Assembly: GCA_964392315.1 (NCBI GenBank)
Contig: CAYMOT010000001.1
Location: 137,578-201,577 of the forward strand
Length of the DNA stretch: 64,000 nucleotides
DNA from: an uncultured Candidatus Saccharibacteria bacterium
GTDB taxonomy: Bacteria > Patescibacteriota > 4484-211 > JAGQKX01
Direction: 5' to 3'
Position 1 is the stretch's first letter. Every line of letters starts with the position of its first letter. The notes below the pieces were generated by a model. It did not search any database. It saw nothing but the letters and a program-made list of their open reading frames with translations, and had not been told where the DNA came from. Position numbers and translations under genes: made by a program. This document shows positions 11,407 to 24,039 of this stretch, piece by piece.

Positions 11407-11659
11407 ATCTCAGCTTTTTAAGCTGATGACTGCCGCTTATGAGGTGAGAGGAATCAAACCATACGCATCAACCATCAGCTTTCGAGAACCGTGCTGCATG
11501 TATGCAGTATCGGCAACAACTGATGTTTTGATTTCCGGACCAAGATTCAATTGTTTCTGACAAACTCCTCTAAACATGCGAGACAGTATACACCAACACT
11601 ATAGGGCAGTAAAGACCTGGCTTGTGTTTTTAAATTAGTGGCGTAGAATACCTGCTGGT

Positions 11660-12454
11660 ATGAAAGAAGAATTTAAGAAAGACATCACAATCAACATACC
11701 CACAAAAAACAATCCTCTCTTACAAGAGGCATTAGATCGAATCAACCAGCACGAAGAATTGAAAACTATTTGGAAAGTGGTAAACGTCAATGCTATGGAT
11801 CGGCTTGCCATGAGCGATCATGGTCCGATTCATGTGCAAATCGTCGCTAATAGCGCACTGCGGATGATCCGTATTCTCATAAAAAACAACATTGAACCTT
11901 CAGTGTGTTCTGCATATGGCCTTAGCACTGACTACGGAGAATTAATTGTTGTGCTTGCCGGATTACTCCACGATATGGGGATGACCATAAATCGCAAAGG
12001 TCATGAAGAGTTTAGTCTGTTTATGACGCATTCACTACTGCGAGAGTTACTTTCGTTCTTGCCCATCGATGAACGGGTAATTGTCACCGCTGAGGTGCTT
12101 CACGCAATCATCTCTCACCGTAGCGATGGGAAACCTATAACCCTTGAAGCGGGAATTCTGCGAGTCGCTGACGCACTCGATATGACCGCAGGCAGATCAC
12201 GGATTCCATTTTCTAAGGGCGGTGTAAACATCCACTCTCTTTCAAATCAGGCAATAGAATCGGTGACAATTAATGAAGGTACTGAAAAGCTGGTTGAGAT
12301 CGTCATCACCTTAAACAACTCTGCGGGAATGTTTCAAATAGATGAACTGCTTTCGGAAAAGCTCAAAGGGTCAGGTCTGGAAAAACATGTAAGTGTAAAG
12401 GCAATACTAGAGGCAGAGACCGAGAAAAAACTCATCAGTGAATTCTCGCTATAA
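11660..12454 (+). CDS. HD-domain metal-dependent phosphohydrolase family protein
   Basis: An H...HD arrangement (SDHGPIHVQIV ... LLHDMGM ... downstream D residues). About 260 aa, resembling archaeal/Thermotoga-type HD proteins. Confidence 0.55.
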   Translation: MKEEFKKDITINIPTKNNPLLQEALDRINQHEELKTIWKVVNVNAMDRLAMSDHGPIHVQIVANSALRMIRILIKNNIEPSVCSAYGLSTDYGELIVVLAGLLHDMGMTINRKGHEEFSLFMTHSLLRELLSFLPIDERVIVTAEVLHAIISHRSDGKPITLEAGILRVADALDMTAGRSRIPFSKGGVNIHSLSNQAIESVTINEGTEKLVEIVITLNNSAGMFQIDELLSEKLKGSGLEKHVSVKAILEAETEKKLISEFSL

Positions 12455-12459
12455 CCTAT

Positions 12460-12505
12460 TTCCCGCACGAATTACCGCACGTTTCCCGCACTTATCCCCA
12501 CACAT
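12460..12505. repeat. Cluster of TTTCCCGCAC-like direct repeats (left cluster)
   Basis: Read directly from the sequence: tatTTCCCGCACgaattaCCGCACgtTTCCCGCACttatCCCCACAca. Related copies lie at 15727-15790. Confidence 0.6.
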
Positions 12506-12686
12506 CCGTTTGTACCACCTTTCCTTGCTTGATTTTTAAGAAATACTATGAGACAATATCGTCCGACTGTTGGACGTTGTGGACGTTCTCACTTCTTCGT
12601 TGCATTTTGTGGATTGCGAAATCTCTGTGAGGGACATTCCCTCTCCTATATTCTCCAACCCGTCTTTCAACGGGAAGGAGAACACC

Positions 12687-12956
12687 ATGAACGACCAACA
12701 GCAGGCTGACCGCTACGACCTCAACCTCGGTGATGAAGGATTTGCTGAACTCTTGAGACGAGTCGTGGATATCACGCTCAGGCCAAAGAGGTACAGCGAC
12801 TTGCTAATTCACCCCGGTGGTACCGCGTTCGGCGGAACCGTAATCCTTAACTTTGGCCCCGAGTACGGTGGGGCGAGGTTAGACGTAACAGGCGTCTGTT
12901 ATGTTCCAGGAGAGCGGTCCCTCATCGAACCGGAAGAGCCAGAAGAGGAAGAGTAG
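12687..12956 (+). CDS. Small hypothetical protein (89 aa) with acidic Glu-rich C-terminus
   Basis: The ATG at 12687 is preceded by GGAAGGAG at about -8. The track ORF starts earlier at 12570, but that region has no RBS. The coding region is visibly more GC-rich than its surroundings. It ends at a strong hairpin. Confidence 0.4.
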   Translation: MNDQQQADRYDLNLGDEGFAELLRRVVDITLRPKRYSDLLIHPGGTAFGGTVILNFGPEYGGARLDVTGVCYVPGERSLIEPEEPEEEE

Positions 12957-12964
12957 CGTGCAGC

Positions 12965-12992
12965 GAGCCCCGTCTAGCAGAAGACGGGGCTC
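12965..12992. terminator. Intrinsic-terminator-like hairpin shared by convergent genes
   Basis: Stem GAGCCCCGTCT (12965-12975), loop agcaga, stem AGACGGGGCTC (12982-12992), followed by atcccctttt. Confidence 0.55.
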
Positions 12993-13025
12993 ATCCCCTT
13001 TTCCCAAGGTTACTCCTGCACTATA

Positions 13026-15710
13026 TTAACCAATATTTGTCACCTTGCCATTTTCTGCCTGGATCTTATGCAACGTAGAAAGGCGCTGACCGAGAACACT
13101 GTCAGGGGGTAGCGTTTCGTGGTTAGACATAATGACAGTTAATTCTTCATCGTCTAGCCATTCCAGTATCAATGCCTCTGCTTCTTTGCGCAATTCACCA
13201 CTCAATTCCTTGAGTGGTTCATCGAGCAATATCGTCCTAACCCTTTGCACCCCTTGCTCACCTTGATGTTTCTTTGCAAATTCTATTTGAAACTTTATCC
13301 GCCAAAGACCCAGCAACTGTCGTTGTCCTCCCGATAAGCCAGTTTCCTGACTTCGCACAAATGTACTTACAACCCTTTCTTTTTCGAGAATCTCTGCCGC
13401 AACATGCGCCTTTGTTTCAGCGTTTAGGTCATCATAGGAAAGTTTGTAGTTATCAGGTTCATTTGCTTGATACTTTTGATACATTTCTCTAAAGCGATGT
13501 GACCCCGCCAGCACCTGGCCAGCGAGCAATCGATCCTGGTCGAATCGTAGACCTGCCAAATTTGCAGCAAGGCTACCTTCAATTGTGTCAACGGCCTGCG
13601 GTTTAATCCCTATACTTTCACGATATGCCCGTTTATCTACTTCCCCAAATCGGAAACCTCCTACAGTCATTAGTCCTCCATCAGCTCCCTCTCCGTACAA
13701 CACTTCATAAAAAGTGGACTTTCCTCCACCAGGAGAACCAACTAATTGATACTTTTCTCCTTGCTGTATATTGACTTGTTCAGCGTCAAAATATTTATTG
13801 CCCTTAGCATCAACACGTTGTATTCCAACTAATCGAATATCATTTGATGTAGGGATTTCTTTTCCTATTTGAGAATCTTGCAGCATTATTGAATTATAAA
13901 ATTCAGCAAGTGCACGAAGTTGCGGAGTCGTACGCATAATGCTCGCTCCGGTACCTACCGCGGCTTCTGCTATTTGTGCCTGGGCTGATGACTGTGCGAC
14001 TACTTCATCCAGATTAACACCCTCTATACCTAGTGCATAAAGAGTGGAATTTAACAAAAGTGCAACGCCCCTCGGCCCAACCTGTGGAAGTCTATAGTTC
14101 CTTCGCATACTTGACTCCCTTGAAGCAAGTGACCGTTCAGCATCTAGGACATCTTGAACATGTAGCGAATCTACATAACCTTCTCCTCCCGCTCCCATCA
14201 AATCTGCCCTTGTATTGTGCGTTGCAACGGTGGCAGCTTGCCTGCTGCGTTCAATTGCTGACTCTGCCTTCATCTGTAGTGCCATTGCGCCAGAATGCCA
14301 GCCCGTGTTCACAAGAATTGCAGCAAGTTGTTCACCTTCAGGAGATGACTGGGTCAGATATATTCCTGAAACGAGCGAATTTATTAATGCGGGAATAAGT
14401 TCAGCTGGAATACTTGATAGGATCTTCTGCAAACGATGGGTTTGAATTTCTAGCGCACGAGGTGAAGAACTAAAACCTGCTCTATTTATAGACACAATAT
14501 CTGGCTGTGCTTGCACTACCTGGCGGGTTACTTCGAGGACTGTCCCTTCGAACCCTTCTTTCCCTTGAGATAATTCACGTACAAGAGATTCCGTTTTATG
14601 TGCCTGAAATGTACGGGCTATATGTGCTCCCATCATTGCAGCTGCTCCACCTGCCACCAACCACGGATTTTTGGTCAGAAGTCCTTTTGGTACCAGTACC
14701 CCTGCCCCTAACTCACCTGCTGATGATGCTGCTGACAACGCAGCGATTTTTGCCAAAGAGACCTTATGGTCTCTCCCATACAATGCCAATATCTTTCGAT
14801 ACATCCCCCATGTTCCAATACCCTCCCCACCATCCATAGCCTTTTGAACTTCTTGAACAATGTTCCCAAAGTCATCTTCATACTCAGGATATTCTTTTTG
14901 CAATTGTGCTGTGATTTGCTCGGGCGTAAGTTTTGCTTCAACACCACGAGCAATTTTTTCCTGTAATAATCGTGCATTAGTTGCGTAAAGGGCTTCTCTT
15001 ATAAAATCACCGGAAGTATAAAGATCCGCCTGTTTGTCGAAATCTTCTGCGAGTTCTGTTTCGTTGTATCTCAATAATCCTGCACCCACAAGTCTCCGCT
15101 GATCTGAAAGAAGACCCCTATCCTCTTCAGTGTCTCCCCAATGCGTGGGGTTGAGAGGATCCTGACCTGTATCTATATATTCAGGCTCATCTTTTGATAA
15201 CGGATCAAAAAGACCCAGGGAATGTTTTTCGTCAAACTCTAAGTTAATATTTTGTTCGATTGCTTCTCGAAGCGTAAGTGGATTTTTACCCGGCAATCTG
15301 GGGACAAACGCATCATCTGATTCGTCTAAAGAAGTTACACTCGCAATCGCCGCATCTATGTCAAACGATTCTCCATCGTCTGCCATTTGCTGGCGAATTT
15401 TCTTGACCTGCGCAAATTCCAACACACCAGTCGCATGGTAATCAAACCTTCGCGCAGCGAGTTCAACCTCTTCTTCTGTAAACAACCGTTGCTCTCGCAC
15501 TCGTTCAGTAATTGCTTGAATCAATTCGCTCGTGGCAGCCCGGGTAAACGGTTCAAGGTCTTCACGCAATGTCCCGTATTCTTCAGACCAAACACCTTCT
15601 TCTGGAGAATTGCCTAATTTGTCCAATCTACGCCTAATAGGCTGTTCGGTTGCACCTGAGACCTTATCTTTAATATTCAAAATATCTTGCACACGTTCGC
15701 CATCCGACAT
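13026..15710 (-). CDS. Large hypothetical protein (894 aa): uncharacterised N-terminal domain of about 620 aa fused to a C-terminal ABC-type ATPase domain
   Basis: The C-terminal part carries Walker A (LVGSPGGGKST), ABC signature (LSGGQRQL), Walker B (RTILLDEPL) and an H-loop (SNHE). The N-terminal part is acidic with no recognisable motifs and only one short hydrophobic hairpin (IAALSAASSAGELGAGVLV...NPWLVAGGAAAMMGAHIA). Confidence 0.7.
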   Translation of the reverse strand: MSDGERVQDILNIKDKVSGATEQPIRRRLDKLGNSPEEGVWSEEYGTLREDLEPFTRAATSELIQAITERVREQRLFTEEEVELAARRFDYHATGVLEFAQVKKIRQQMADDGESFDIDAAIASVTSLDESDDAFVPRLPGKNPLTLREAIEQNINLEFDEKHSLGLFDPLSKDEPEYIDTGQDPLNPTHWGDTEEDRGLLSDQRRLVGAGLLRYNETELAEDFDKQADLYTSGDFIREALYATNARLLQEKIARGVEAKLTPEQITAQLQKEYPEYEDDFGNIVQEVQKAMDGGEGIGTWGMYRKILALYGRDHKVSLAKIAALSAASSAGELGAGVLVPKGLLTKNPWLVAGGAAAMMGAHIARTFQAHKTESLVRELSQGKEGFEGTVLEVTRQVVQAQPDIVSINRAGFSSSPRALEIQTHRLQKILSSIPAELIPALINSLVSGIYLTQSSPEGEQLAAILVNTGWHSGAMALQMKAESAIERSRQAATVATHNTRADLMGAGGEGYVDSLHVQDVLDAERSLASRESSMRRNYRLPQVGPRGVALLLNSTLYALGIEGVNLDEVVAQSSAQAQIAEAAVGTGASIMRTTPQLRALAEFYNSIMLQDSQIGKEIPTSNDIRLVGIQRVDAKGNKYFDAEQVNIQQGEKYQLVGSPGGGKSTFYEVLYGEGADGGLMTVGGFRFGEVDKRAYRESIGIKPQAVDTIEGSLAANLAGLRFDQDRLLAGQVLAGSHRFREMYQKYQANEPDNYKLSYDDLNAETKAHVAAEILEKERVVSTFVRSQETGLSGGQRQLLGLWRIKFQIEFAKKHQGEQGVQRVRTILLDEPLKELSGELRKEAEALILEWLDDEELTVIMSNHETLPPDSVLGQRLSTLHKIQAENGKVTNIG

Positions 15711-15726
15711 AGCTCTAGTATATACC

Positions 15727-15790
15727 CCAATTCCCGCACAAACTCCCGCTTATTTCCCGCGGTTATTCCCGCACTCGCTGTTTCCGTGCT
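15727..15790. repeat. Cluster of TTCCCGC(A)C-like direct repeats (right cluster), immediately upstream of the 894-aa gene
   Basis: aaTTCCCGCACaaacTCCCGCttatTTCCCGCggttaTTCCCGCACtcgctgTTTCCGTGC. It lies in the 52-bp gap between the 279-aa gene stop and the 894-aa gene start. Confidence 0.6.
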
Positions 15791-16602
15791 TCACTATCAG
15801 CTTTTTTTTGTCGTATATTCAATCCAACCGCTTGCCCCATTCTGTTTTGTTTTAATTTTTCAAACGTCTCTCTATTTTTGACAATATCAGTTAAACCTCC
15901 AGAAAGATGATAATCTACGTTCAACAAAGACAATGCACGATGCATTTGCTCACCATCTAGATCTAAGGCCGCTTGCAATTGATCCATACTTTCACCTGAA
16001 CGACGCATATGGAAATCCATGCGGGTGTTTACCTTTTTCTGTGTATTAGATACAGGATCGAAATAGAGGATGGTCAAACGTATGCCATTTGGGTCAAATC
16101 GCCATTCCGCCCTATCTGGTGTTACCTGGTAATAGTCTCCTGCTTTGATCGTATCCTTATAATCGCGGGTTGCCTGAAGCGTCATCTCTATCCCTGAGAG
16201 ATTCACTGCAAACATTTTTTCGGCTAAGACATCCGCATGGGGATCAAAATTTTCAAGCTTATCGAGGTCACCATCGCAAAACAACGCATCAACCTGTGTC
16301 GCCAAATGCAATTCTGCCATGGCGTTAAAATATACTCTGCCTTCATTTTCTTCATATCCGCCCTGGAATTCACCTGACACCTTTTGCAATTGGCCTCGAA
16401 AGGCTTCGGCAAGGCGGGAGTCGGCGATGGCTTCTGCGTAGTTTTCGCCTATTGTTGTAGCATATTCGGAAATTTCGTCGTGGAGACGTTGTAGATACTC
16501 ATGTGAATCAGGCAATTCTATGCGTGATATCTCCTTATTCGCTTGGAAAGAAAACCTTTCTGCAAAACCTGCCAATAGTGCTTGTCGTGCTTCTTCGCTC
16601 AT
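15763..16602 (-). CDS. Hypothetical protein (279 aa), no recognisable domain
   Basis: The ORF sits 9 bp downstream of the exonuclease/GIY-YIG gene on the same strand and is probably co-transcribed with it. Confidence 0.5.
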   Translation of the reverse strand: MSEEARQALLAGFAERFSFQANKEISRIELPDSHEYLQRLHDEISEYATTIGENYAEAIADSRLAEAFRGQLQKVSGEFQGGYEENEGRVYFNAMAELHLATQVDALFCDGDLDKLENFDPHADVLAEKMFAVNLSGIEMTLQATRDYKDTIKAGDYYQVTPDRAEWRFDPNGIRLTILYFDPVSNTQKKVNTRMDFHMRRSGESMDQLQAALDLDGEQMHRALSLLNVDYHLSGGLTDIVKNRETFEKLKQNRMGQAVGLNIRQKKADSEARKQRVRE

Positions 16603-16611
16603 ATTAATATT

Positions 16612-17997
16612 TTACACACTTTGGGAACCTAAACGTACAATATGTGCTGGATTCTTGTGTATATAGCCGCTTAGAATCTTATAGGTATCATATTCAAAGG
16701 TGCGTTTTTTTGAACGAACATCATCGAGATCTTCCTCACCAGCGGCCGACCCCAAATAGCACCATTTATCTAAAACATGCGCTTCGCTCATTTCAAATTC
16801 CGGGTTATATTCGCGAATTGCGACAGGGCCATCGTACGGCCATGACTTAAGGCGGTATTCACCAAATGCTACATCAAAACGCGCATTGTATTCAGCCGGT
16901 GCTTCATGCCCAGAGCACGCGCCATGACACCGCTTCAAGTGATACCCAAAACACGCCCCCCGTGTGTTCTCTAGTCCCATAAACCGATCACATAAATGAT
17001 GTTGTGCAGTTAATAACGCAATATGTTCCTTTGCTTGTTTCTTTGAGCGGTATACCCCAACAATGCGCTCTACCTCCGCAGCATCAATGCCGCTTTTCTC
17101 TTCTAGTGTAACTGTTTTATATCCATCATCCTGCAACATCTCTTTTGCCAGGATAAGCCGACGCGTCCTTCTGAGCTGCTTATTAAAAATCGGCATACGT
17201 TCTTTGATTGCCTGCGACTCTCGTATGAGCGCGCCAACCTCACCCGCGGTTATTTCGTAATCAATATCGCGGATCTCCTGCAAAAACTTGAGTGCATTCG
17301 GATCGTCTACATAAAAATGGTCTTTGACCCGTTGCCGAATATTTTTACTTTTGCCGACATACAAAAGTGTTCCGTTATCGCCATAAAAATAGTAGACACC
17401 ACTCGTTGATGGCAATTTTTCAATAATCTCAGGTGCGATATATGACGGCAACTGCGTCAACCGGATAAGCCGCTTCAAGGTCTGCTCAAAGTATTCCTGT
17501 CCAGCCTCCTGTTGGGCTATCTCAAAAAAACGCACTGTAGCTAACGTATCGTCGAGCGCACGATGCCGATCCGCACATGCAATGCCAAACCTGGAGATAA
17601 TGCTATCAAGCCCATGGCTTCTGTATTGGGGATAGAATACGCGTGACAGCTGCACGGTGCAGAGCCTACTTGGTCGAAAATCGCAGTTAAGGCGAGCGAA
17701 CTCTTTGCTCAAAAAGCCAAAGTCAAACCCTACATTATGTGCGACTAAAACAGCGTCTTCAAATCGCTCATGCACCTCGTCGGCAATCTGGGCAAAGGTA
17801 GGCGCATCGCGCAAAACCTGCGGATCAATTCCCGTCATCTCCTGTATAAATGAACCAACATATGCTTCGGGATTTACGAGCGTTTGAAACGTATCGATTA
17901 CCGTCCCATTCTCGTATCGTACAATTGCAATCTCGATGATCCGGTCATCCTTTGCACTATATCCGGTTGTTTCCACATCTACAAATGCATATACCAT
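16612..17997 (-). CDS. DnaQ-like 3'-5' exonuclease domain fused to a GIY-YIG nuclease (Cho/UvrC-N-like) domain
   Basis: The N-terminus has the DEDD exonuclease motifs FVDVETTG, HNVGFDFGFL and H...D. The central region has GIY-YIG (GVYYFYGDNGTLLYVGKSKNIRQR). A Cys-rich segment follows, as in UvrC/Cho. The architecture matches the exonuclease-Cho fusions known from mycobacteria. Confidence 0.75.
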   Translation of the reverse strand: MVYAFVDVETTGYSAKDDRIIEIAIVRYENGTVIDTFQTLVNPEAYVGSFIQEMTGIDPQVLRDAPTFAQIADEVHERFEDAVLVAHNVGFDFGFLSKEFARLNCDFRPSRLCTVQLSRVFYPQYRSHGLDSIISRFGIACADRHRALDDTLATVRFFEIAQQEAGQEYFEQTLKRLIRLTQLPSYIAPEIIEKLPSTSGVYYFYGDNGTLLYVGKSKNIRQRVKDHFYVDDPNALKFLQEIRDIDYEITAGEVGALIRESQAIKERMPIFNKQLRRTRRLILAKEMLQDDGYKTVTLEEKSGIDAAEVERIVGVYRSKKQAKEHIALLTAQHHLCDRFMGLENTRGACFGYHLKRCHGACSGHEAPAEYNARFDVAFGEYRLKSWPYDGPVAIREYNPEFEMSEAHVLDKWCYLGSAAGEEDLDDVRSKKRTFEYDTYKILSGYIHKNPAHIVRLGSQSV

Positions 17998-20380: not shown

Positions 20381-20469
20381 CTGCCCCTTCCTTTGTTCCC
20401 AATCGAAAAAACATTTGCATATTTGCTTATTTGTATTATTTTTTTATTACTTGATAGGGGGTGAGACGT

Positions 20470-21036
20470 ATGCTCTCAAATTTAGTTAAACAAACCACAG
20501 ACGCAGTGGTAAATGCAATAAACGGCGCTGATGATATTATGTCCGCGGTCCGTTCTACCGTACGTAATCAAGTTACCGGAGTCCTCGGAGATGCTGATGC
20601 GATTGCTACGGGAGGAATGGAAGCCGTGACGAGTGTTGTATCTGGTGCCGTCAAGAGCGCGGGAGAAGTCGGGGAGTCGGTCACTACTGTTGCCGTCAAC
20701 ACCGTCGGTGGTGCTATTACTGGTGTCGCTGATGTCGGTGGTGATATTATTGACGCAGTGGGCAAAACGGTACGAAGCGCTATCTCTACAACCGCTGAGG
20801 TTGGTGGGGACGTCGGTGCTGTTGCCGTGTCAGTTGTGCAAGAGGCGATTAAAACTGCTGGTGACGTTGGTGTAAATACCGCTGAAGCAACAGAAGCAGC
20901 AGTGCTCGGCGCAGTCCATGCTGCAGACGAAGTCGGCTCTGACACCGCTAACGCGGTCCGTGACGCACTCCTTGGTGCTGCCGCATTACCGCGTGATGTC
21001 GTTGAACGAGTAATTAACGGAAGTGAAAAGGAGTAA
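20470..21036 (+). CDS. Tandem-repeat protein built from about 8 copies of a 22-residue (2x11) Ala/Val/Gly-rich repeat
   Basis: AGGGGG sits 8 nt before the ATG at 20470. The protein contains units AVKSAGEVGESVTTVAVNTVGG, AITGVADVGGDIIDAVGKTVRS, AISTTAEVGGDVGAVAVSVVQE, AIKTAGDVGVNTAEATEAAVLG and AVHAADEVGSDTANAVRDALLG. These correspond to about 66-bp DNA repeats. Confidence 0.5.
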   Translation: MLSNLVKQTTDAVVNAINGADDIMSAVRSTVRNQVTGVLGDADAIATGGMEAVTSVVSGAVKSAGEVGESVTTVAVNTVGGAITGVADVGGDIIDAVGKTVRSAISTTAEVGGDVGAVAVSVVQEAIKTAGDVGVNTAEATEAAVLGAVHAADEVGSDTANAVRDALLGAAALPRDVVERVINGSEKE

Positions 21037-22773: not shown

Positions 22774-24039
22774 ATGTTTGCGCTTATAGATTGCAACAAT
22801 TTCTTTGTCTCGTGCGAGCGCGTATTTCGGCCAGATCTGGAAGGAAAACCAGTGGGCGTTCTTTCAAATAACGACGGTTGTTTTGTTGCACGCTCAAACG
22901 AGCTTAAAGCACTCGGTGTTCCCATGGGCGCACCTGCCTTCGAATACCAGCATATTATAGAACGACACCACGTTATTACGTGTTCGGCAAACTTTCATCT
23001 TTACGCGGATATGTCACGCCGTATTATGCAAATAATCCGTGACAGTGCGCCTCATACTGAAATTTATTCAGTCGATGAGGCATTCGTTGACCTGTCTGGC
23101 GTACACACTCCTCTCATATACGCACACACACTTCGTGCGCGCATTATGCAATGGACTGGGATATCAGTGTCTGTAGGTATCGCACACACAAAGACACTTG
23201 CCAAACTTGCAAACGAATACGCAAAAAAACATTCAGACACTGACGGAGTGTCATATATTGACCTGCAACATGACGCTAAAGCTGCACAAGAAATCATGTC
23301 CTCTATTCCAGTTCAGGATGTTTGGGGTGTTGGTTGGCAATATACAAAATTTTTAAAAACGCATGGTATTAACACCGCAATTGACCTCTGTAACACAAAC
23401 GACACCTGGCTTCGCAAACAAACATCAATTTCGCTCCAACGAACCGTACTAGAATTGCGAGGAATCGCCTGCTTTAGGCTAAATGAACACCACGAGGACC
23501 AAAAAACCCTTATTTGCTCACGTACGTTTGGCGCACCAGTAGAGACACGCGCCCAGCTTATACATGCGCTTACCGGCCATGTCGAAAAAGCAGCAGAAAA
23601 GCTACGGCAACAAAATCTCGCCACAGGAACAATTCGGGTACATATTCGCACTAACCACCACAACAAGACTGATACATAATATGCTGCATCTCAGGAAGTC
23701 GACCTGCCGATCGCGACTTCCTACACACCCACACTCATCCATGCTGCAGCCCAAGCATTAAACAGAATTTATCGGCCAGGGCTGCGGTACAAGCACGCAG
23801 GCGTTTTGCTGCGTAATATATTTCCCAGTAATCAAATACAGCTGAATCTTCTTCATACTCTTCCCAATATCACCAAACAACATATGCTCATGTCTGCGCT
23901 CGATACGATTAATCAGAAGTGGGGCAGACATACTCTAGGATACGCGGGAAATTTTGTAACAGAACGCAAGTTGTACAATCGAAGATTCTGCTCTCCAGCC
24001 TACACAACATCTTGGGATGAAATACCACACGTGGGTTAA
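22774..24039 (+). pseudogene. umuC: umuC-like Y-family DNA polymerase interrupted by a single in-frame TAA at 23677-23679 (N-terminal 301 codons plus a C-terminal DUF4113-like 120 codons in the same frame)
   Basis: N-terminus [18 protein letters not shown]...[11 protein letters not shown] is the Y-family palm. After the stop, the same frame continues as YAASQEVDLPIATSYTPTLIHAAAQALNRIYRPGLRYKHAGVLL...SPAYTTSWDEIPHV, which is the UmuC C-terminus. The combined length is about 420 aa. Confidence 0.7.

Follow-up and report, generated by a model that had tools for sequence, protein, structure and literature searches.

Two repeat clusters around a gene insertion in a Candidatus Saccharibacteria chromosome as halves of one conserved seven-unit array

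What brings two clusters of the same short direct repeat to the two sides of a convergent gene pair? The question is raised by a 64,000-nt stretch of DNA, hereafter the window, from an uncultured Candidatus Saccharibacteria bacterium (NCBI GenBank assembly GCA_964392315.1, contig CAYMOT010000001.1, positions 137,578 to 201,577). An earlier note on this DNA described tandem copies of a TTCCCGC-type repeat on either side of a gene for an 89-aa protein and a gene for an 894-aa ABC-type protein. It offered two explanations: an operator array for one regulator controlling both genes, or the boundaries of an "inserted segment" of about 3.3 kb. The gene pair lies between the genes of a Cho-like exonuclease (Cho) and of an HD-domain protein (HD). 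That the locus is chromosomal is indicated by the housekeeping genes dnaK, groEL and TIM in the window.

Comparison with relatives shows that, at the level of sequence, the two clusters are the halves of one ancient and conserved array of seven repeats between the convergent Cho and HD genes. The two-gene insert sits at the central unit 4, which is now present on both sides and gives 4 + 4 units. Taken jointly with this, the proposal that a sequence-specific DNA-binding protein uses the array as a phased platform appears reasonably probable to us. What looked like a local oddity turns into a defined element, an 81-bp array of seven phased 8-bp cores that is kept by selection at one chromosomal position.

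The clusters of the window and the intact array of relatives

The clusters and the segment between them are given below, with the units of the ancestral array counted from the Cho side.

12460 to 12503, plus strand: cluster 1, with units TTCCCGCAC (12460), TTACCGCAC (12472), TTCCCGCAC (12483) and TCCCCACAC (12495), which are units 7, 6, 5 and 4' of the ancestral array
12504 to 15730: inserted segment of 3,227 bp between unit 4' and unit 4, comprising the putative promoter, the leader and the gene of the 89-aa protein, a probable terminator hairpin, and the 894-aa gene with its 20-bp upstream region
15731 to 15774, plus strand: cluster 2, with units TTCCCGCAC (15731), CTCCCGCTT (15743), TTCCCGCGG (15754) and TTCCCGCAC (15766), which are units 4, 3, 2 and 1

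All eight units of the two clusters lie on the plus strand, and the spacing is 12-11-12 in each cluster. Tandem repeats are thus found at both sites where the earlier note had placed them, and they are direct repeats on one strand, as it had said. A fifth copy that it had read in cluster 2, TTTCCGTGC (15781 to 15789), lies inside a 279-aa open reading frame (ORF) and is not counted here, the motif being lost in other haplotypes. The exact 9-mer TTCCCGCAC occurs six times in the 64 kb, always on the plus strand, and is the joint most frequent 9-mer. Four of the six copies are inside the clusters, and the other two (39137 and 39773) are isolated and within ORFs. When one mismatch is allowed there are 28 matches, compared with 11.9 +/- 3.4 in shuffled sequences. 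A position-weight-matrix chain scan of the window returns the two clusters as the only chains of at least three units, where shuffles average 0.2. As the matrix was built from these same units, only the absence of other arrays counts as independent evidence, and in this respect the scan agrees with the remark that such clustering occurs nowhere else in the window. Within the sampled sequence the motif is not common at random positions.

How does the locus look in genomes without the gene pair? Distant orthologous loci were found through homologues of the Cho-like protein. In one relative (L153) and in ten contigs of the P0020 lineage (L159-168), the Cho and HD genes are directly convergent and 97 bp apart. 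The 97-bp spacer is one unbroken seven-unit array, which reads TTGCGGGAATAA CTGCGGGTAAT GTTCGGTTAAT GACGCGGGAATT GTTTCGGGAAAT ATGCGGGAATA GGTGCGGGAATT. The consensus unit on the Cho strand is (G)TGCGGGAA(T/A)(T), and the array is about 81 bp long. Spacing in the intact arrays is 12-11-12-12-11-12, with a final 13 in L157. Seven units, starting from the Cho stop codon, are also found in the empty-site locus L169 and in L157, where a DUF1444 gene follows the array. Across the relatives, the array begins 0-5 nt from the stop codon of the Cho-like gene. The first unit after this stop codon is the same in L153, L154 and L157 as unit 1 of the window, TGCGGGAATAA on the minus strand.

No homologue of the 89-, 894- or 279-aa proteins was found by tblastn in L153, L154-157 or L159-169. 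On the Cho side the homology of the relatives to the window extends as far as about 16676, and on the HD side as far as 12504 (blastn). Since the empty-site relatives have a Cho-HD gap of 97 bp and lack homologues of the cassette proteins, the 3,227 bp between the two clusters are an insertion. Given the sequences of the units and the spacing of 12-11-12 in the halves and 12-11-12-12-11-12 in the intact array, cluster 2 can be assigned to units 1-4 and cluster 1 to units 4'-7. The comparison with relatives lacking the 894-aa gene, which the earlier note had proposed, therefore reveals an intact seven-unit array in place of the insert. Its idea of an inserted segment stands as far as the insertion itself is concerned, but the repeats belong to the target and not to the ends of the insert.

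The same central position is occupied in a second lineage. In L154-156 the order is Cho, four units, a 148-aa ORF, four units and HD, with each half-array in L154 spaced 12-11-12 as in the window. The 148-aa gene is unrelated to the cargo of the window. Units that flank the inserts are near-duplicates: either side has ATGCGGGAAT in L141, and either side has GGTGCGGGAA in L154. The intact arrays have seven units, and the lineages with an insert have eight or nine.

The gene order Cho, 279, 894, 89, HD is shared with contigs from other samples (L003 and L141-149), and the repeat motif is present in every one of these relatives. Cluster 2 is retained in five haplotypes. Cluster 1 is retained in the L141 lineage, there with TTCCCGCAT as its fourth unit and with an additional fifth one; a blastn alignment of 53 nt at 79% identity joins this cluster 1 to cluster 2 of the window. 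The 279-aa gene, which is located between the Cho stop codon and unit 1 and hence outside the bracket formed by the two clusters, is by its distribution a second, separate and lineage-specific insertion.

Selection on the array and its probable role

Is the array maintained by selection? Between lineages, the four-fold sites of Cho and HD are saturated, with 0.25-0.43 identity, and despite this the arrays are 66-81% identical. When positionally orthologous units of three intact arrays are compared, the core is 0.83 identical and the non-core 0.48, with a four-fold identity of 0.31-0.43. A matrix of 43 units resolves the repeat into a TGCGGGAA core and a W-rich spacer. In this matrix, positions T2, G3, C4, G5, G6 and A9 carry 1.4-1.8 bits each, and the spacings are 11 bp (11 times), 12 bp (21 times) and 13 bp (twice), with a mean of 11.7. 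After the split the cores still differ little: between the window and L141, cluster 2 has changes at 2 of 28 core sites and at 5 of 18 non-core sites, for a neutral rate of about 0.27 taken from the four-fold sites of Cho (binomial P = 0.009). Because cores and spacing are conserved across lineages with saturated synonymous sites, these alignments indicate that the array is under selection. It appears extremely improbable that the repeats are a neutral minisatellite or a chance clustering with no function. Slippage does create short-unit tandem repeats and the number of units varies from 7 to 9, but the saturated lineages keep the units in orthologous positions, with cores and spacing preserved, and comparable arrays are absent from shuffles. 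The conserved cores and spacing, together with the specificity for one locus, exclude a neutral minisatellite.

What, then, could be the role of the array? In the most likely reading, it would be a phased platform of double-stranded DNA for a putative sequence-specific binding protein. About one protomer would sit on each 8-bp core, in head-to-tail order, and the 3-4 A/T-rich base pairs that separate the cores would be spacers. Such a complex would resemble winged-helix response regulators bound to direct repeats, or the centromere and iteron arrays of plasmids. A role at the DNA level is favoured over one at the RNA level by the conservation of the non-C positions of the C-rich strand, which are as well conserved as the C positions, and by the conservation of the exact unit spacing. 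It is also favoured by the retention of the cores in both halves after the split placed them on different transcripts. The output of such a platform could be a roadblock or insulator between the convergent genes, a regulatory site, or a chromosome-organising site. As the half-arrays are now directly 5' of the cassette genes, the platform protein may influence both genes as a secondary effect, and it is possible that the half-arrays abutting the two cassette promoters have acquired a secondary use as operators.

Several observations weigh against this interpretation. The whole-array identities given above are inflated, as repeats align easily in shifted registers. Across the five haplotypes of cluster 2, the contrast between core (3 of 28 sites variable) and spacer (6 of 18) is weak when taken alone (Fisher P = 0.12). 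No other array occurs in about 208 kb of the window and the relatives' loci, which are partly redundant, so that the uniqueness of the array holds for the sampled sequence only. No candidate for the binding protein was found: the genes next to the array include none for a helix-turn-helix protein or a response regulator, and the window lacks a partner for the two histidine kinases encoded nearby. The place of the ancestral array between two 3' ends is an unusual one for an operator, which makes a classical operator role unlikely as the original one. The C-rich strand also fits the published definition of a Rho-loading site (PMC6407284).

The array resembles known repeat-array binding sites, yet it lacks the genomic context of each family tested. 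Direct repeats of the ArcA/PhoB type come in runs of 2-5 at 11 bp (PMC3798270). The array is like the sites of the OmpR/PhoB family (the pho and ArcA boxes) in its 7-8 bp cores with an A/T-rich spacer of 3-4 bp and in its head-to-tail direct repeats of about 11 bp from centre to centre, of which a four-repeat module corresponds to two dimers. It is unlike them in that seven units are beyond the documented range and the period is 11.7 instead of 11 bp. Moreover, the ancestral array is found between 3' ends and not at a promoter, it is one site in about 208 kb with no regulon, and no response regulator was found in the window. The layout of the repeats is therefore that of the OmpR/PhoB type, but the location at promoters of a regulon is not.

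Centromere-like sites of plasmids (of the stbDR, tubC or parC type) offer a second comparison. The stbDRs of R388 are two sets of five 9-bp repeats with 2-bp spacing, bound by StbA (PMC3098194), and tubC is a discontinuous site with blocks of direct repeats (PMC6009700), bound by TubR. Like these sites, which are often in two blocks and at one locus per replicon, the array here has short direct repeats with a period of about 11-12 bp. The stbDR and tubC sites are cooperatively bound by a small DNA-binding protein, and it is by sequence layout that the array is likened to them. They differ in being located upstream of an adjacent partition operon, on plasmids or prophages, whose product binds them, whereas the array is chromosomal, has no partition genes next to it, and was split by an insertion. 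A direct-repeat cluster at a single locus, within the sampled sequence, is what the two have in common; an adjacent gene for the binding protein on a plasmid or prophage is found for the known systems only.

The alternatives have to be weighed against a DNA-binding platform. One of them builds on the operator proposal of the earlier note: the four-unit clusters, as operator or activator sites, would let one regulator co-control the 89-aa and 894-aa genes, the working unit would be the module of four, and the seven-unit arrays would be leftovers of cassette loss. We consider this unlikely. A half-array is found directly 5' of each cassette gene, unit 4 lies 8 bp from the TATACT hexamer of the 894-aa gene, the units occupy the expected -35 region of that gene, and the 89-aa gene combines a conserved -10 with the lack of a good -35, as activator-dependent promoters typically do. 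In addition, four direct repeats at about 11 bp would suit two dimers of an OmpR/PhoB-type regulator (PMC3798270), and the 148-aa gene of L154 also begins about 30 bp from a four-unit half. However, three deeply diverged lineages without the cassette keep all seven units with their cores and spacing, which would be unexpected if the repeats served the cassette only. The halves face their genes in opposite orientation and at unequal distances from the -10 elements (8 bp and 40 bp), a homologue of the 894-aa gene in L004 (46% identical) has no such repeats upstream, and no regulator gene is nearby. Control of both genes by one regulator is thus unsupported as the original role of an array that is conserved in cassette-free genomes between 3' ends. 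A role on RNA, which we regard as improbable but worth weighing, is that of a Rho-loading (rut) site on the HD-sense transcript, terminating HD transcription in a spacer free of hairpins. The empty-site spacer has no terminator hairpin, and the array begins 5-14 nt past the HD stop codon. Like known rut sites, it is an unstructured stretch of about 80 nt right after a stop codon, rich in C and poor in G, in which patches of C recur every 11-13 nt (PMC6407284). The HD-sense C/G ratio of 3.2-3.4 is in the top 1.5% of 78-nt windows of the window, the minimum free energy is -5.3 kcal/mol (z = +0.6), and pyrimidine patches recur every 11-12 nt, as would suit a Rho hexamer with its six RNA-binding sites. 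In sequence composition (~78 nt, C > G, regular C spacing, no structure, downstream of an ORF) it fits the RhoTermPredict definition, which asks for 78 nt in which C exceeds G and a C residue recurs every 11-13 nt (PMC6407284). On the other hand, rut sites need C-richness and not a fixed 8-mer, and the known ones are poorly conserved. Here the G, A and T positions are as conserved as C, and the 8-mer and the exact 12-11-12-12-11-12 spacing are kept, also in the half that is off that transcript: cluster 2, no longer downstream of HD, still has cores evolving below the neutral rate. The array might conceivably be a CsrA-type GGA sponge in the 3' untranslated region of Cho, but cluster 1 is no longer on the Cho transcript.

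The insertions themselves suggest another possibility, that the array or its central unit is a dedicated insertion site, targeted by a trans-acting recombinase or transposase that duplicates the target unit, as attL/attR or as a target-site duplication of 10-12 bp. We find this quite unlikely. Two unrelated cargos (the 894- and 89-aa genes of the window and the 148-aa ORF of L154) occupy the same central unit, with a copy of the unit on both sides. There are 8-9 units where an insert is present and 7 in the intact arrays, both within-array insertions keep to unit boundaries, and recombination tracts terminate at the array edges. In these respects the array is like att sites and target-site duplications, in which near-identical copies of a unit flank the insert, here in two lineages whose inserts share the position but not the cargo; in the window, L141 and L154 the insert has direct duplicates of the target on either side. 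It is unlike them in that no integrase or transposase and no shared terminal repeats or otherwise defined ends were found at the locus, and the target is one unit of a tandem array. There are two events only, and their positions would coincide by chance in about 1 of 7 cases. Neither end motifs nor inverted repeats are common to the cassettes, and the neighbourhood has no recombinase gene. Two more insertions at the locus, the 279-aa gene and the DUF1444 gene of L157, fall outside the array. Slippage also alters the number of units, cluster 1 of L141 having five, and homologous exchange anchored in the conserved flanks could swap cargos into one old slot. In a broader form of the idea, the array would be an undescribed chromosomal element, a nucleoprotein platform whose central unit serves as a reusable landing site for the insertion and exchange of unrelated cassettes and is duplicated each time, integron- or att-like, with no recombinase adjacent to it; this, too, we hold to be rather improbable.

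The interest of the locus is that unrelated genes have been inserted repeatedly, twice at the same central unit, and that recombination tracts start and stop at the edges of the array. If a binding protein is found, it would form with the array a new pair of cis-element and protein in an uncultured clade. If the insertions at the central unit are site-specific, the array would be a new kind of cassette-capture site.

Genes and signals at the locus

The genes and signals around the two clusters are as follows.

11660 to 12454, plus strand: gene of the HD-domain protein, a conserved flank, with its stop codon 5-14 nt from unit 7
12544 to 12549, plus strand: -10-like TACTAT belonging to the 89-aa gene and following unit 4' at a distance of 40 bp, with no good -35
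12687 to 12956, plus strand: 89-aa ORF with the Shine-Dalgarno sequence GGAAGGAG upstream, matching no known family
12965 to 13002, plus strand: hairpin GAGCCCCGTCT/AGACGGGGCTC with a T-rich tail, read from the sequence, between the convergent 89-aa and 894-aa genes
13026 to 15710, minus strand: gene of the 894-aa protein, with a C-terminal ABC ATPase domain (Pfam ABC_tran, residues 646-805)
15717 to 15722, minus strand: -10-like TATACT ahead of the 894-aa gene, separated by 6 nt from its ATG and by 8 bp from unit 4
15763 to 16602, minus strand: 279-aa ORF between the Cho stop codon and unit 1, its final codons GTG CGG GAA TAA being unit 1 itself
16612 to 17997, minus strand: gene of the Cho-like exonuclease (DEDDh exonuclease and GIY-YIG/Cho domains), a conserved flank

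The gene layout given in the earlier note, with the 89-aa ORF on the plus strand and the 894-aa ABC-type gene on the minus strand, is found as described, and the region around the 89-aa ORF is GC-rich (about 0.55, compared with about 0.45 nearby). The convergent pair is correct; the 279-aa ORF, whose stop codon is overlapped by cluster 2, went unmentioned.

The 89-aa protein has an identical copy on nine contigs. Its leader is about 130 nt long and has a strong Shine-Dalgarno sequence. Within it, AATACTATGAGACAAT is shared without change by the window and the L141 lineage, and identity over the remainder of the leader is just 66-75%. We infer that TACTAT acts as the promoter of the 89-aa gene. 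The hairpin at 12965 to 13002 is a probable intrinsic terminator, although it fails the tail rule of a simple terminator scan.

The 894-aa protein is very rare, with 3 clusters among 5.8 billion sequences; for its N-terminal 620 aa, 1.84 billion representatives contain 4 clusters. In a PDB profile search, the middle of the protein aligns with ABCB-type exporters over their transmembrane region. The sequence GGTATATACT around TATACT is conserved in five haplotypes, and the layout of this gene suggests a leaderless transcript. The 148-aa insert gene of L154 has the same layout, with TACAAT, then 6 nt, then ATG (L154 11885-11896). A -10-like hexamer exactly 6 nt before the ATG, with no Shine-Dalgarno sequence, is thus seen both in the window (15711-15722) and in L154 (11885-11896), which suggests that leaderless transcripts are in use in this clade. 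An antisense promoter after cluster 2 (TTCACT-18-TATATT) was considered as well, and is not conserved in other haplotypes.

Homologues of the 279-aa protein are found in the lineage of the window only and are absent from the relatives. AlphaFold2 models of the 279-aa and 89-aa proteins (pLDDT 46 and 50) were unusable, being too poor for a fold search. Searches of the cassette proteins with PADLOC, NCBIfam and Pfam gave nothing but the ABC domain and a weak mad3 match. For the Cho-like protein, the nearest named Cho homologues are about 43% identical and spread over several phyla. The neighbours of the array are the Cho-like nuclease, the HD protein, VTT/DedA, histidine kinases and an MFS transporter.

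Variation around the array and other observations

The middle of the 894-aa gene (window 13700-14900, about residues 270-670) is hypervariable, with 47-75% nucleotide identity to L003 and L141 and almost no indels, and its flanks are 80-100% identical. This middle part exists in two allelic forms, one of the window type and one of the P0002/L141 type, whose members are identical to each other there. A block of 1,246 bp (window 12449-13694) is 100% identical in L135, L138 and L140. L003, L136, L137 and L139 are identical where they overlap with it, save for one mismatch in L139, and the contig flanks differ by about 10-25%. Cluster 1, the 89-aa gene and the terminator all fall inside the block, and so does the 3' end of the 894-aa gene, where the ATPase is encoded. 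On the left the block ends at the array edge, which points to a recent recombination tract or sweep. In the otherwise identical loci of L153 (5900-6400) and L159, the sequences differ only over the last ~500 bp of Cho (62-78% identity), and this divergent tract stops exactly where the array starts.

A distant homologue that covers the 894-aa protein in full length (46% identity) was found only once, in L004 (1-5534), where its gene lies between mutS and mutL. The rare 894-aa ABC-type family is linked to DNA-repair genes in both contexts, namely the gene of the Cho-like nuclease in the window and mutS/mutL in L004.

Other identities of the repeat were considered and set aside. A chi-like or uptake sequence was ruled out, as the 7-mer is neither over-represented nor strand-biased outside the arrays. 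A replication origin or terminus was ruled out by the lack of a GC-skew switch at the array locus. A G-quadruplex could be formed from GGG runs with loops of 8-9 nt, yet this would leave the conserved T, C and A positions unexplained. Rfam covariance models gave no match at E <= 1 in window 12400-13050 or in L153 6300-6650, and at the gathering threshold two tRNAs are the only matches in the window.

The motif was also looked for elsewhere. A literature search for the motif strings returned primers and unrelated matches only. Scans of viral sequences gave nothing related, with tandem repeats of TGCGGG units occurring in phages at about the chance rate. A scan of metagenome contigs for a four-core pattern gave three matches, all unrelated and GC-rich, and the clade appears to be absent from that collection. 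The pattern TYCCCGC-N8-CCGC-N4-TTCCCGC, with which genome contigs were scanned, was too loose, and among the matches listed were chance ones in GC-rich genomes. In L152 (268-340), and also in L151, TTCCCGC units at 12-11-12 spacing with further copies are found directly after a terminator on a GC-rich, phage-like contig; this array surfaced through a pattern that imposes that spacing and is indistinguishable from coincidence.

Some observations concern other parts of the window. In the intergenic region between the MFS and HD genes (11407-11659), a small ORF-like stretch is partly conserved with a 56-aa ORF of L153 (LMVDAYG / LMLDAYG). The stretch could encode a small protein or a leader peptide, or act as an RNA element; Rfam at the gathering threshold gave nothing in this interval. 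The ORF of a Y-family polymerase (IMS) at 22774-23679 has 301 aa, compared with 420-431 aa in L154, L157 and L159, and is preceded by a UmuD-like ORF of 117 aa; the short IMS ORF may be the result of a frameshift or a truncation. Finally, a GC-rich (0.57) ORF of 191 aa at 20461-21036, which matches no family, carries degenerate repeats rich in V, G, D and A and is located just upstream of a gene for a MASE6 histidine kinase.

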